Notes: a model not told the origin generated them from the sequence alone. Positions 3,416 through 56,975 are shown, counted from the stretch's first letter. The stretch: 64,000 nucleotides of DNA from Eledone cirrhosa (GCA_964016885.1 OZ024765.1:16306001-16370000), one strand, 5' to 3'. Numbers and translations: made by a program.

Positions 3416-3788
3416 CGATATATTAACAAATGGAAACTATATTTATAAAACCATATTTATTTCATTATACATATTTCAAGGACCCCAAGTCAAATTATGG
3501 TGCGCTTTCATCAAATAAAATATAATATAGATCAGTTTTATAAATAAATATTGATATACCCTTTAAGAATGCGACCATTTCTGTTGGAAGCTCCCGGATA
3601 GATGAAAGCGCACCATAATTTGACTTGGTGTCCTTCAAATATCTAAAATGAAATAAATATGGTTTTATAAATATAGTTTCCATTTGTCAATATATCGTAT
3701 TTTTACTCCAATAATTTGTTGAGTGCTTTATATCAGTTATAAAAATATTTGCTTGTTGTATCCCAACAATTTAAATATAACTTCTACA
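3416..3788. mobile_element. Family A fold-back HHR element in (TA)n (PLE-like, non-autonomous)
   Basis: ~96-bp inverted arms 3416-3511 and 3601-3697; homologous to 9319, 15820, 30657 and 37551; TA flanks. Confidence 0.75.
3458..3522 (-). ncRNA. Type I hammerhead, degenerate core (UUGAUGA)
   Basis: tattttat-TTGATGA-aagcgcacc...ggtcctt-GAAA-tatgtaTA-atgaaata; C3 is mutated. Confidence 0.5.
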
Positions 3789-4134
3789 TATATATATATA
3801 TATATATATATGTATATGTATGTGAAAGAAAGCAATGCATGTAAATGAAAAATCGATACCAAGAAAGTATGTTTAATATTACATGCAGCGATTGTTGCTT
3901 CATTTAATGTGAATGGTCGACAATGTTATTTTACCGATATTTCCTCTCTGCTTCCATTATCAGCGCACACAGACCCATACACACATATACAAACATATAC
4001 ACACAGACAGACAAACACACACACAGATATACCTATATATATATATATATATATATATATATATATATATATATATATATATATATACAAACATATATAT
4101 ATAAACATACATATAATACATATATATATAAAAG

Positions 4135-4620
4135 AAAATTTTCGCTCCACAAGGCTGAATACAATAAATGTAATCTGAGTTTTTCGAATATTAATAATAA
4201 CATTCGATTCGTTTTCAATTATGCAAACAAGCCTCAATTGTATAGCCATGTCAGTAGAATAAACCCTTCATTCTTGTTCTTCTGTTGGCATGTGAACAGA
4301 ACTGCAGAGACTAATGTTTCTGGGTATTACCCTTCTTCAGTACAGCTCACTATTCAACTGCCAAACTGTCAGAGCTAGTGAAAATATATGCTATTTTCAA
4401 AATTACACAGTTACTGATCGGCCTGATTTGCATATTAACAGAATGGCTGATCAGTCAGATCTGCATATTAGCAGATTCGCGGATCAGGCAGATTTGCATA
4501 TCAGCAAACTGGCCAGTCAGTTTCCTGTATACGAGCGATAAATGGCCGGCTTTGCCAAATTCAAATAAAAAATAAAATGTTCGTTCTACATGGCTGAATA
4601 CAATAAATGTAATCTGAGTT
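4135..4620 (-). mobile_element. ~439-bp unit bounded by a ~47-bp direct repeat, containing an HHR-like motif
   Basis: ggctgaatacaataaatgtaatctgagtt at about 4153 and 4592; HHR-like motif at 4299-4348. Confidence 0.45.
4299..4348 (-). ncRNA. Hammerhead-like motif (imperfect)
   Basis: gagctgta-CTGAAGA-a-gggt-aat-accc-a-GAAAC-atta-GTC-tc-tgcagttc; 8-bp stem I with a 2-nt insertion. Confidence 0.4.
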
Positions 4621-4670
4621 CTAAGCGTAGGTAATCCCCAATATATTTATACATAAACAAATCCCTTGAA

Positions 4671-4861
4671 TAATTGTTTTTACTTTTGGCCCAAGGCCAG
4701 CAATTATCCCAATGCATTACTGGTACTTTATTTTATCGACCCCGTAAGGACGAAAGCCAAAGTTAACCTCGCCGGAATTTCAACTTAGATCATAAAGGGC
4801 CGTAACTCTATGCTGCAAAGCATGGCGTCCGACCCTCTACTGATACTGCCAATCGACCGCC
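4671..4861 (-). mobile_element. tRNA-derived SINE (octopus-type)
   Basis: A box tggcagtatc, degenerate B box, central ccttacggggtcgataaaataaagtaccag; ttgaataat present at both ends as a possible TSD. Confidence 0.85.
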
Positions 4862-6122
4862 TTTGAATAATGTAAGTTAAAATGGAGGTAACTATAAATG
4901 AAACGTAGCTTATGTAAAACATGGAGTTCAGAGGTTAAGTGGCAAATTCGGTGAAAATGAATTCAATTAATCCAGTCTAAACCACATTTTTCGATTAAAC
5001 TTTGCTTCATGAGGACAGTGACTGAAACATTGGACCGGGTAATTAAGCAGTATTTCCCTGAAGCCAGTTGTGAGAGTATATTCTACTTCTCCGAGTTACA
5101 AATCACACAAACTTTCGTCGTATTGACATGGGGATACACACGCGCCCACATACACACACCCACACACATATAATCTCACACACACACACACACGCACATA
5201 TATATATATATATATATATATATATATATATATATATATATATATATATATATATGTATATATACATAGCTTTATGCATATACATCTATGCGCGCAAATA
5301 TATAAATATATGCGTACATATATTTATATATATGAATTAGTAATAGTAATATATATTATATATATATATATATATATATATATATATATATATTATTATT
5401 ATTATATATATATATATATATATGTGAGTGTCTGCATATATGTGTACATATAAATGTGTGCGTGTGTGTGTTTCAATGCATATAAATATATATACCTATA
5501 AAAATACAAATGTTCGTATATATATATATATATATATATATATATATATATATATATATATATGTATATATATGTATATATATGTATATATGCATCTCAG
5601 TACGTATGTATTTATGTATGTACGCATGTATATATTGCCCTGGCAGTAAGAGATCGTCGTTTTCTTCCCGAACAGGATGTCATTTATAATGTATGGAAGT
5701 CTCAACTGCTAAACGACTAGAAACCAGTACAGGAAGTCTTCTCAGAGAATGGCAAACGAACCATGCTTTAAGGGAAACATAGCAATCCATATGTACAGAA
5801 AGATTAGGTCAAATCTAGTCATTATTCTTTTCTTCACGGATGAGAAGTACAGAAACTCCGTTGCTTCCTTAATTGAATTATTAATCCCAATAGATAATAA
5901 TGTATTTCTAACAAGCGAAAAGGAAAATATATTAGATTATAATGTATAATACAGATCTCGAAAGGGAGATAACCGGAATCCCGGAAAAGAAAATGCAAAG
6001 AACCAAAAAATGATGTTTTTAATTGGTACCTTGGGTATGATAAGAAAGAACGCTTAAATATATATTGCATTAAATATTTTCGTTGTAATAGAAAATAACA
6101 AACGATGCAAGACAATCTCTTT

Positions 6123-6863
6123 ATACAAGAGGGTTTCAAAAATTTCGTGGAAAAAGCGATTTAAGTTATGATGTTTATTTTTCAACATATGCCCCAGTAC
6201 TGTTCTGACCTGTTAGGGCCCCATTTATGGGTTAAATAAATGTCCTGGATATGACATTAAACTACATCCAGTGACAAGGCTCCAGTTCGGGAGTTCAGTA
6301 GCACCTTGATAGCACTTACACTACTACTACTACTACTACTACTACTACTACTACTACTACTACTACTACTACTACTACTTCTACTACTACTACTACTAAT
6401 ACTAATACTACTAATACACTCCTACAAATGTTGATACCAGCCTTTAAGTCCAACTATGTAGAACTGGGGACCATGTGATTTAAAAGCAGCTTTTTTAACA
6501 CGTTCAACTGGGGATCACCTTCAACCTCATCTGTTCCACTTCTAAAACAACTTATCCATTTGTAGGTTGTTGATTTCTTTGGGGGTATTGTCCCCATAAA
6601 CTTGCTCCAGAGTGTCAATGACTTGGCTCCTCTTTCCCCATAGCTTCACCATGCATTTAATATTTTGATGGAGGCCATGTTACTCGAGAGGGTGCTGACT
6701 TCCGACTGGCGGTGCCGTGTTACAACATGTATTTAAGGGTTCGTGTTAGAACACGTTATGACATGTCAGTACAACAACGTACAGGTGCATTGAGATCAAA
6801 ATCCCTGTATATAATTTTTAGCTATGAACTTTTCCCACGAACTTTTCGAAGCTCCTTTGTATA
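6123..6863. mobile_element. Degenerate Tc1/mariner-type element with nested insertion
   Basis: Imperfect TIRs tacaagagggtttcaaaaatttcgtggaaaa and ttttcccacgaacttttcgaagctcctttgta, with TA ends. Confidence 0.5.
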
Positions 6864-54498: not shown

Positions 54499-55560
54499 AA
54501 TACAGAAAGTTATGCTTTAAAGGGCAAATGGGAATGTAAATCTCCGGCCGAATTAAGAGTAAAATATAAAACACACGCGGGTTATATATATATATATATA
54601 TATATATATATATATATTTAAGTATATATATATATATATATATTTGAGTATATATATATATGTATTTATGTATGTATGTATGTATGTCAAAGGGCAAAGG
54701 AGCTCTTAAGAGTCAATGGCCATCCAAAATCACCGGGAGAGATGACCCCTTAGCCTTTGTCAAGGCAGAATTCTAGGAGAAGGAAAACTCTGATATAACA
54801 CCTGCAACCCTGATGGTATCCAAATATGTTGACTTGTTCTTCTTTTTGGTAAATATCATCTTGGTTAAGAGAGTGGGGCTGGCTTTGTACAGTGCCTTTG
54901 CTCACTATAAAAGCTTCACGGCACAGGCATTGCTTTATATCTGGAGATCTCTCTGCACTTGTCGTCACATGGTACCATGGGCCCTGCACTATGTGTCAAT
55001 AATTGTCACAAGTGTAGTGTTTGTACCAGAGTTTTCAAGTCGCTGGCTGGACTAAAAAGTCACACACCTTCAGCGCATCGGTGGGGGTTCTCCTACATGG
55101 ATATAATGTAGTGGCCGTACTCGAAAACGAGTTGGCAGCCACCAAGTATGTGTGTGATCTACTTCCATCACTGTCTGCGGAATTCAGCTAGCAGCGCCCT
55201 CTATGAGTCTTGAACAAAAAAAATTAAGATTTCAGTCTTAAAAAATATATATTACATTAACCTAGATCTTTACTTACAATGCTTGTAACTCGAACACACT
55301 CATACACACACACACATATATATACATACGCACTCATACACGCACATACACACACACACATATATAGAGAGAGAGAGAAAGAGAGAGGGAGATAAAGAGA
55401 GAGAGGGAGAAAGAGAGAGAGAGAAGGGGTGAGCGGGGAGAGGGTGACGGAAAGATAAATATATATATATATCTATTTATACATATGCATTAATATCTTT
55501 TGTATATATATATATATATATATATATATATATATATATATATATATATATATGTATGTA

Positions 55561-55710
55561 TAACAAAGGAAATGTGGTAAGGAACCAGATGGACCATAAC
55601 GCACCAGAGTATTCAATACTTAGGGTAATAGAGTGGGAAATAGAAAAAAGTATGACCCCGACGGTAGAGCTCAAACGGTTTGAGCTCTGCCGTCGGGGAA
55701 CAACTTTTCT
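55561..55710 (-). mobile_element. Family C element
   Basis: ccccgacggtagagctcaaac-g-gtttgagctctgccgtcgggg hairpin. Confidence 0.75.
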
Positions 55711-56445
55711 ATATATATATACATGTATATGTATACATAAATATATATATATATATGTATATATATATATATATATATATACATATATATATATACATAT
55801 ATATATATACATATATATATATACATATATATATATACATATATATATATATATACATATATATATATACATATATATATATATATACATATATATATAT
55901 ACATATATATACATATATATATATATACATATATATATATACATACATATATATATATACATATATATATATACATATATATATATATATATATATATAT
56001 ATATATATATATATATATATGTATACATATACATATATATGTACATGTATGCATATACATATATATCTATATATATATACATATATATATCTATATATGC
56101 CTATATATGCATATATGTACATATGTATATGTGTTTGTGTGAGTGTGTATATATATATATATATATATATAAATATATATATATGTATATATATACACAC
56201 GCACACGCACAGATATTGATTGAAAAATCATTAAAAGATATAACGAAAAGGTGAGCATAATAAAGGCTAACATCATTTGGATGGATATCAATAGACGTGA
56301 AAGTTGCTATTGTAGACGTTTCGTGACACAATCTTCTTAGAAATGTAGGGGAAGAAGGAAAGAGCTGAAACAAGCAGAAATCAGAAAAACCTACGGGGAG
56401 AGGTATATATATATATATATATATATATATATATATATATATATA

Positions 56446-56614
56446 TAGGAATCAGTAAGACCCGGACGGCTGAGCTCAAGCCGTTTCGACGTCGAAACGG
56501 CTTGAGCTCAGCCGTCAGGGTCTTACTGATTCCTATTACTCACTCTACTACCCTAAGTATTGAGTACTTTGGTGCGTTATGGTCCACCTGGTTCCTTACC
56601 ACATTTCCTTCGTT
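56446..56614 (+). mobile_element. Family C element with ~90-bp palindrome
   Basis: taggaatcagtaagaccc...tttcgacgtcgaaa...gggtcttactgattccta. Confidence 0.8.
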
Positions 56615-56621
56615 ATATATA

Positions 56622-56975
56622 TATATAAGATCAAAAGAAGGTTAAAAGAGTTACATGTATTTTATTATGCGCATTTCAAAAACAAATATCATCATGCAAT
56701 AACATTTGTGTTTTCATCAGATAAAATAGGAAGACATGATATGAAGGTTAAAAAACACTTGTGAATAGTGCAGTTTTAAATCAACATATGATGAAAACAC
56801 AAATATCATTGCATGATGATATTTGTTTTTGAAATGTGCATAATAAAATACATGGAACTCTTTTAACCATCTTTTGATCTTATATATTATGTATACTCCA
56901 GTCCTACAAACTGTAGAGTGCTTCTTATCCGATATCTGCATTGCTTTATTGTACTACAATAAAACTCACCTCCTA
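56622..56975. mobile_element. Family B fold-back element (HHR 56658-56728 minus; plus arm truncated in the core at 56789)
   Basis: Homologous to 31568-32010. Confidence 0.8.

Follow-up and report, generated by a model that had tools for sequence, protein, structure and literature searches.

The islands between the TA tracts in a 64,000-nucleotide stretch of DNA from Eledone cirrhosa (GCA_964016885.1 OZ024765.1:16306001-16370000; hereafter the window, with positions counted from its first letter), which sits on contig C26 of a 3.0-Gb genome, are, with high probability, mostly 3' termini left by coding Penelope-like elements (PLEs), above all those of the Hydra clade, on insertion into (TA)n as two head-to-head, 5'-truncated arms, with a pair of hairpins likely setting the points at which these arms start. 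By sequence comparison, 16 of the 20 hammerhead ribozyme sites in the window are assigned to 3' pseudo-long terminal repeat (pLTR) stubs of coding PLEs, 13 through sister copies and 3 through similarity between families, and the corresponding clade assignments are 12 Hydra, 3 Neptune/Nematis-type and 1 Penelope/Poseidon-like. The finding as originally posed, in an earlier reading of the same DNA from sequence only (the sequence-only reading), amounts to ordinary PLE biology on an unusual scale. The twin hairpin, in addition, would be a precise, testable cis-signal for the choice of internal start sites by the PLE reverse transcriptase (RT), the closest retroelement relative of telomerase.

Hammerhead motifs and their coding parents

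The core CUGANGA...GAAA that the sequence-only reading reported at 20 coordinates is found at every one of them, with a single core substitution, at 3458. The type I descriptor (helix I of at least 4 bp, CUGANGA, helix II, GAAA, helix III and NUH) is passed by 12 sites (8749, 9359, 12925, 14583, 15863, 30696, 30971, 31692, 43708, 52338, 52481 and 56658), and six more (3458, with C3 changed to U, 4299, 15333, 31901, 53273 and 54025) are decayed copies whose sister copies pass it. At 46838 and 53095, the core and helix II are kept but helix I is absent, as it is in all 16 sister loci of this family that were read, out of 18. The 12 intact sites combine the core, NUH and helices I to III, and helix II shows covariation; the motifs are PLE-type type I hammerheads, as they had been read. 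A probable hammerhead at 31256 escaped the same reading, as did truncated families at 15651, 52701, 16135, 36944, 55553, 56448, 37552 and 46070, and its count of about ten unrelated families overstates their independence because 10 of the 20 sites, alike in helix I, in helix III and in a motif of the tail, belong to one superfamily (A); nine groups were counted here.

Comparison with shuffled sequence leaves a negligible probability that the motifs are chance matches in AT-rich DNA. When the 468-bp tandem array in the window is collapsed to one unit, the strict descriptor has nine matches in the window compared with 0-1 in 3 x 200 dinucleotide shuffles, and the core alone has 24 compared with 2.7; a wider descriptor has 12 matches, versus a mean of 0.04 across 100 shuffles. 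In 60 regions of 10 kb (600 kb), picked unseen at fixed, round-number positions, there are 43 motifs, compared with 0-3 in ten shuffles, although a few long-helix-II matches among these may be due to chance. A chance origin would also agree with Rfam, which at gathering thresholds reports no hammerhead in the window (in an E-value scan with 553 matches, microRNA models on TA repeats dominate among the matches listed), but each family has hundreds to thousands of sister places and helix II covaries. In 16 superfamily A copies, both sides of helix II change in eight of the nine pairs, and the covariation score is reached by none of 500 shuffles, a test that may be inflated by kinship among the copies; double-change cells number 33, versus 12 in shuffles, and 95% of the helix II cells are paired, versus 39-53% with the partners slid. 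The shuffle counts, the covariation and the abundance of sister copies together refute chance as the origin of the motifs. Accordingly, the earlier statement that the stems differ while the core is kept holds inasmuch as the core is fixed and helix II compensates in these copies, but the invariance of the core is partly circular because 14 of the 16 aligned rows were chosen as descriptor hits.

The window itself contains no RT or GIY-YIG remnant, in agreement with the sequence-only reading, and neither do the 10 kb on either side. The link to coding parents comes from sister copies, for which ten family searches gave 240-3,633 candidate places each, with the best 40 scored, and a query with an RT piece gave 27,358 candidate places, with 150 scored at 78-100% identity. 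Frames for RT or the GIY-YIG endonuclease (EN) were linked in this way to 13 sites and were not found for the others among the fetched loci. The family of 52338 and 52481 has a fixed 3' end and a ragged 5' end; its long copies extend through 1.5 kb of 3' untranslated region (UTR) into a GIY-YIG frame, and near-complete RT-EN frames of 554-750 amino acids (750 in locus L092, 554 in L094) bear the same ends. The RT-EN frame is also joined to the hammerhead end in sister copies of the 53273 family (L111), and EN lies upstream in the families of 9359 (L108, L109 and L337), of 31692, 31901 and 56658 (family B; L162), of 14583 (L186) and of 30971 (family G; L329, with the start of the open reading frame (ORF) in L342). 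In these Hydra-type elements (superfamily A and families B, C and G), a single ORF that encodes RT and, C-terminally, a GIY-YIG domain is joined to the hammerhead end. Upstream of the 12925 family, there are EN and RT pieces in sister copies; the same holds for the 43708 family, with a 507-amino acid RT-EN frame in L330, and for 46838 and 53095 (family E; L335). The sites at 3458, 15863 and 30696 are 72-86% similar to 9359 or to each other. No ORF link was found among the fetched loci for families K and M or for 31256; the protein matches upstream at the loci of these families and of 15333, 3458, 15863 and 30696 are few and come from neighboring insertions.

The sequence-only reading saw in the islands a community of small non-autonomous ribozyme retroelements; such elements would be SINE (short interspersed element)-like or retrozyme-like and have their own transcripts. 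As an account of the islands in general this is improbable, and for the coding families it is refuted: at the 13 linked sites, the sister copies reach variable lengths into the 3' UTR and then into EN and RT, and their 5' ends are ragged rather than fixed. The sister copies are, to be sure, mostly short in every family, but short stubs result from 5' truncation, which is typical of PLEs (PMC8557442 and PMC4209133). The earlier description fails, then, for most of the sites, which are 5'-truncated coding PLEs, and stands for 4299, 8749, 54025 and the 468-bp array, all of them ORF-less tandem units with one type I hammerhead each. These units, of 439, 468 and 995 bp, are arranged head to tail and have neither a PLE protein match nor a stop-free frame of more than 155 amino acids; they likely borrow the PLE enzymes. 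The 468-bp array follows the same insertion pattern as the PLE stubs. At many loci on other contigs (L052-L066), it is 99-100% identical, with tandem and inverted arms between TA runs, and is therefore very young.

The proteins of superfamily A and families C and G show the RWR and DKT motifs, the CxCX5C linker and CxxC/CxH, and lack CCHH. Specifically, RWRA with SDKTN is found in L093 and L096, and RWRA with SDKMG in L342, which correspond to the Hydra RWK motif and the change of DKG to DKT; the CxCX5C linker, together with CxxC and CxH around the conserved E and N, is present in L093, L337, L186 and L329 but decayed in some copies, such as L092. Where aligned, their EN pieces are 22-60% identical. 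Two further marks of the Hydra clade, a hammerhead near the 3' end and insertion in (TA)n, are both found, and the 3' UTR is 1.4-1.5 kb long. Nematis was also considered for superfamily A and rejected in favor of Hydra. Pfam searches with the ORFs gave RVT_1 with an E-value of 0.017 for one piece and left three long frames unmatched; a homologue search gave 189 full-length relatives, mostly unnamed, and four further contig sets compared with positions 52290-52700 of the window yielded related copies only. The families of 43708, 46838 and 53095, with a C-terminal EN, a CX2-5CxxC linker and, in the stretch from GIY to YIG, two cysteines (L330 and L335), appear to be Neptune/Nematis-type, that is, to belong to one or the other of these clades; Naiad, considered for family E on account of its core-only hammerhead, was ruled out by RT upstream of EN in L335. 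The EN end of the 12925 family is one that we take to resemble Penelope/Poseidon, a comparison made on the EN and RT pieces upstream.

Two-armed insertions and the tail hairpin

Two fixed 3' ends, separated by 28-94 nt, are found in every family. In the two-armed insertions, a long end is paired with a short end in 68 of 80 cases, including 31 of 38 (p = 6e-5) in the four families whose query left the long end unforced; some of the pairs separated by more than 1 kb may represent independent insertions. The tails of the Hydra type share a hairpin, RCUC-(inner stem)-NN-GAGYRC, that begins at a distance of 2-10 nt on the 3' side of the short end (8 nt in family A52, 7 in the families of 9359 and 14583, about 4 in family G and, in the L116 family, 2-4). 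In A52 and G, there is another copy, which begins 8-9 nt 3' of the long end and immediately precedes the ORF; in these families, the spacing of the two hairpins is close to the length of the tail (97 versus 94 nt and 82 versus 77 nt, respectively), and both copies are present, 133 nt apart, in the L116 family. Among the matches to the hairpin pattern in the 60 sampled regions, the inner stem averages 3.2 bp in the 41 distinct ones located 20-90 nt before a TA run, many of which are related copies, compared with 1.5 bp in the 66 others and 0.9 bp in shuffles. By eye, this shape, closed by a G-C pair, is seen at the ends of the records that precede Hydra-1_Obim and Hydra-1_Crog in the published supplement, which by file order are taken to be coral and sea-cucumber elements, and it is seen twice at the start of Hydra-1_Ajap, but not in the visible start of Hydra-1_Obim. 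The motif is also absent from the tails of families D, I, E, J and F and of 15333 and 31256 (the family H slice held the short end only); being absent from the non-Hydra tails tested, it is not a general PLE rule. A PLE tail hairpin of this shape was not found described in the open-access literature. A 26-bp minisatellite (L140:2900-4400), the unit of which fits the hairpin pattern, follows closely on the 3' side of a hammerhead and may have arisen by amplification of a PLE tail hairpin.

The arrangement of ends and hairpins suggests a mechanism the steps of which we infer from the in vitro behavior of the anole PLE. A protein, probably as a dimer, would bind the pLTR-ORF junction of its own RNA and nick both strands of a TA tract, and one arm would be reverse-transcribed from each nick, initiating internally just 5' of each hairpin; the hairpins, on this analysis, likely set the RT start sites. 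Both arms would usually halt early, so that the hammerhead, 40-190 nt from the ends, would be the part that survives in the stubs. The stubs themselves would be dead by-products, and cleavage of tandem transcripts by the hammerheads would probably require dimers or the help of protein. More tentatively, and a little short of an even chance, we suggest that the Hydra-PLE twin hairpin, undescribed so far and extending from coral and sea cucumber to this genome, is a ruler for the dimer that starts one complementary DNA arm 5' of each copy, and that this machinery seeded about 200,000 hammerheads and also mobilizes the ORF-less retrozymes. From such a ruler it would follow that a tail is present at only one end of the insertion and that its length equals the hairpin spacing.

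Alternatively, the hairpins could act as DNA or be merely inherited, with the ends set by TA microhomology or by endonuclease cuts in the DNA of the element. This is a substantial possibility, although we consider it somewhat doubtful. Both ends lie in AT-rich stretches with TA microhomology, the tail was formerly ascribed to EN resolution (PMC8557442), and related families would share the motif through descent. Against this alternative, the inner stem stays paired, with G-U pairs occurring, while its sequence changes, the motif is duplicated at a spacing that matches the tail length of each family, and the same shape is seen in the published ends of cnidarian and echinoderm Hydra consensus sequences. 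Several observations weigh against the interpretation of the islands as PLE ends with arm starts set by hairpins. The second hairpin is known from three families only (A52, G and the L116 family, at tandem junctions), the hairpin is absent from the tails tested in the ORF-less, the Poseidon-like and the Neptune-like families, no covariation is found in its outer four pairs within the genome, save for a change from A-U to G-C between the copies, and the folds of whole tails are mostly no more stable than those of shuffles. Furthermore, there is no direct ORF link among the fetched loci for 3458, 15863, 30696 and 15333, only the 40 most similar places were scored in each search, so that proportions are biased, and the clade calls rest on motifs, along with by-eye agreement with the supplement alignments.

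TA tracts and abundance in the genome

Perfect (TA)6+ runs make up about 17% of the window. The reported embedding in (TA)n is borne out by (TA)3+ on both sides of 25 of the 31 stubs, and targeting by (TA)4+ within 135 nt of the query end in 197 of 212 sister loci (a count that omits the copies in the window itself and in contig C1642), compared with 20-38% of random stretches and with 4 of 48 and 10 of 48 SINE ends. In the 60 regions, the median distance from a motif to (TA)6+ is 83 nt, versus 344 nt for random places. The SINE-like repeat, which does not abut TA and hence served as the TA control, is abundant (in the window, 4641-4860, 37336-37516, 41437-41865, 45881-46069, 57280-57433, 60858-61152 and 62008-62119) and is often inserted in PLE stubs.

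The density of hammerheads, called high in the sequence-only reading, is indeed high relative to the pooled sample (2.0 versus 0.7 per 10 kb; p = 0.003) but not relative to the chromosome of the window, C26 (1.3; p = 0.18); the values for C1-C4 and for smaller contigs are 0.63 and 0.93, respectively, and the nine regions sampled on C5-C7 and C28 are all free of motifs. A length-weighted extrapolation gives about 200,000 motifs genome-wide (bootstrap 130,000-280,000); in this estimate, C26 has too large a share of its stratum, and some 2% of the motifs may be due to chance. Within 1.8 Mb of fetched loci, the hammerheads form 37 clusters at 70%. We found no cephalopod hammerhead count in the open-access literature. 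With about 10^5 hammerheads that fall into dozens of families, some with a long helix II and some lacking helix I, the genome provides a natural mutational scan of this ribozyme. The results also suggest that the ends of Hydra PLEs are under-annotated as short unknown or SINE-like repeats.

It had also been suggested that the elements perhaps expand the TA microsatellites. They might create or lengthen (TA)n on insertion, by slippage in primed TA or by tract duplication, and so raise the TA richness of the genome; this we regard as less likely than not. At 147 element ends, the runs on one side have a mean length of 15.7 units, which is above the 11.2 that a cut through a size-biased background run would give (p = 1e-10) and close to the whole size-biased run of 14.6, but a stronger-than-linear choice of long tracts explains these lengths equally well. 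The hammerhead count does follow the TA fraction across the 60 regions (Spearman 0.60). Two assembled copies of one region, in contrast, differ by at most 18 nt in TA runs with no element gained or lost, and no empty-site allele is seen in the approximately 18 kb, all that the window shares with contig C1642, over which TA lengths differ and no gain or loss of a hammerhead element was found. Because the TA runs vary between the two assembled copies, tract length is in any case unstable or imprecisely assembled. The open-access literature yielded nothing, beyond the papers cited, on TA-microsatellite expansion by such elements. The 68-kb contig C1642 (49605-67699) duplicates, at 97%, the window starting from 46569, whereas sequence to the left of the N gap is not duplicated; the contig represents either a haplotig or a mis-join at this gap.

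The window in detail and known systems

The Hydra-type stubs of superfamily A include 3416..3787, with a short-end arm on the minus strand that carries the decayed hammerhead (3458-3522, C3 to U) and a long-end arm on the plus strand with the tail hairpin at 3705; it is linked to an ORF only by similarity to the family of the stub at 9318..9607, in which the short-end arm (minus) has an intact hammerhead, 9359-9423, and the long-end arm (plus) a tail hairpin at 9526. Linked by similarity, too, are the superfamily A stubs 15820..16098 (hammerhead 15863-15925 on the minus strand, tail hairpin 16014 on the plus strand) and 30655..30845 (minus; hammerhead 30696-30761). A superfamily A mini-insertion, 37552..37712, consists of tail and short end without a hammerhead. 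The stub at 52300..52688 has hammerheads in both arms, 52338-52403 in the short-end arm (minus) and 52481-52546 in the long-end arm (plus), the latter with a predicted cut after 52538, a hairpin at 52600 and the long end at 52688; 53228..53551 combines a hammerhead at 53273 on the minus strand, with a helix I mismatch, and a long-end arm (plus) with a hairpin at 53462. The two-armed Hydra stubs of family B are 31568..32001, with the long-end arm on the minus strand (hammerhead 31692, hairpin 31647) and the short-end arm, with the hammerhead 31901, on the plus strand, and 56628..56973, with a short-end arm on the minus strand (hammerhead 56658-56728) and a long-end arm on the plus strand (hairpin 56895). 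A young Hydra stub, 14520..14683 (plus), whose sisters are 99% alike, has the hammerhead 14583-14638 and the short end. Family G is represented by 30942..31194 (plus; hammerhead 30971-31066 with a 63-nt helix II domain, tail hairpin 31120) and by a more decayed copy at 46070-46310.

Families K and M consist of truncated stubs. Those of family K are 15651..15785 (minus), overlooked previously, with a decayed hammerhead and a tail hairpin at 15710, and 52701..52825 (plus), cut within the hammerhead core, with a tail hairpin at 52763; in family M, 16135..16311 (minus) has an inverted 5' piece and a tail hairpin and is cut within a hammerhead-like 3' half, with other stubs at 36773-36887, 36944-37121, 55553-55709 and 56448-56613 and no complete hammerhead core among 69 copies. 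The stub 15257..15594 (plus) has a decayed long-helix-II hammerhead at 15333 and one sister copy, L102, and 31249..31478 (plus) holds the probable hammerhead, by eye, with the core at 31258, a helix I of 5 bp and one helix III mismatch. The Neptune/Nematis-type stubs are the young 43534..43783 (minus; sisters 99% alike, hammerhead 43708-43746) and two of family E, 46749..47067 (minus), with the core without helix I at 46838, and 52852..53209 (plus), with the core-only hammerhead at 53095, to which a mini copy at 53672-53718 can be added. The Penelope/Poseidon-like stub, 12785..13136, has an arm on the minus strand with the hammerhead 12925-12967 and a short long-end arm on the plus strand; its inverted termini had raised a solo-LTR or a miniature inverted-repeat transposable element, both ruled out by the two PLE arms. 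ORF-less units are found at 4131..4620 (minus), about 1.1 retrozyme-like tandem units of 439 bp, with the hammerhead 4299 and a helix III mismatch; at 8381..9062 (plus), a piece of the 995-bp tandem unit, with the hammerhead 8749-8873 and a 95-nt branched helix II domain; at 53840..54582 (minus), a second piece of this unit, with the hammerhead 54025 and a helix I mismatch; and at 24733..30349, the 468-bp array, with 10.7 units on the minus strand followed by an inverted arm.

Other hammerhead repeats were observed outside the window, namely tandem arrays whose units repeat every 310 and 557 bp or so (L340:1835-2900 and L340:409-1604), a related long-helix-II family (L097:458-1258) and a family, present at several loci, whose helix II domain measures about 125 nt and whose helix I measures 10 bp (L112:6328, L151:4552). 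The window further contains a palindromic repeat family between TA runs (43823-44048 and 8158-8316), in which no hammerhead core was found and which may be another PLE stub; a 454-bp repeat in TA (47110-47563 and 54690-55143), with copies 96% alike and no hammerhead match; a short inverted-end element inserted at TA that recurs in many loci (44955-45150); and minisatellites of 107, 95 and 10/20 bp without hammerheads at 7529-7944, 16985-17531 and 2372-2765. The TA-rich 41900-42376, 35141-35435 and 40829-40883 by eye presumably resemble the 3' end of a Dong-R4/NeSL-type long interspersed element. An RTE-like RT frame of 576 amino acids with C-terminal zinc fingers is located at L336:4773-6500.

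Hydra PLEs with hammerheads and (TA)n targeting, octopus included, are already published: hammerheads and (TA)n insertion are described in almost all families of the Hydra clade (Craig et al. 2021, PMC8557442), the (TA)n preference and hammerhead of Hydra-1_Obim, from octopus, are given in the supplement of the same paper, and a tail on one end only is a known PLE feature (PMC8557442). The elements described here resemble the Hydra clade in the single ORF for RT and C-terminal GIY-YIG, the RWK-like and DKT motifs, CxCX5C and the lack of CCHH, as well as in the position of the hammerhead close to the 3' end, in the targeting of (TA)n and in the 5' truncation, the inverted 5' arm and the one-end tail. 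They differ in that the clade was known from few families, and there are many here; in their size of about 4 kb, with a 4001-bp tandem period in L107, compared with units of less than 3 kb, a length that is typical but not strict; in tails of 77-94 nt rather than 30-40 nt; in some helix II domains of 47-63 nt; and in the twin hairpin, which goes unmentioned in the available text (PMC8557442). PLE hammerheads were previously found to form many variable families per genome, mostly single and ‘probably related to truncated PLEs' (Cervera and de la Pena 2014, PMC4209133), and these minimal hammerheads share with ours the opposite-strand pairs 100-700 bp apart and the short palindromic helix III; their numbers, 2,000-9,000 per genome versus about 200,000 here, come from different descriptors and are not strictly comparable.

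The closest parallel to the proposed mechanism is the Poseidon PLE of Anolis (Frangieh et al. 2024, PMC11167929), a predicted dimer for which, in vitro, two internal RT start sites define the tail and both strands are cut and extended; AT-rich targets and a protein-assisted hammerhead are further points in common. This PLE belongs to a different clade, its RT starts in an AC-rich stem-loop inside the ORF, whereas the starts here are placed in the 5' UTR just before the two hairpins, and no difference in start site was seen between its strands, whereas the arms here pair long with short. For metazoan non-LTR retrozymes, PLE origin and mobilization have been proposed (Cervera and de la Pena 2020, PMC7229834; Li et al. 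2026, 10.64898/2026.07.22.740005); the elements at 4299 and 8749/54025, together with the array, are similar to these in their tandem ORF-less units with one type I hammerhead, but exceed, at 439-995 nt, the monomer range of about 170-400 nt and have PLE-type TA flanks and inverted arms. The 43708 and 46838/53095 families agree with Neptune/Nematis (PMC8557442) in the CX2-5CxxC linker and two cysteines before YVG, although family E has lost hammerhead helix I. The accessible text on Octopus vulgaris lists 31 recently active PLE families and leaves ribozymes unmentioned (PMC13282606), and a search of the open-access literature for hammerheads in octopus or cephalopods gave nothing beyond the papers cited. 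What is new here are further members of known PLE clades and three retrozyme-like units, with the scale and the twin hairpin standing out.

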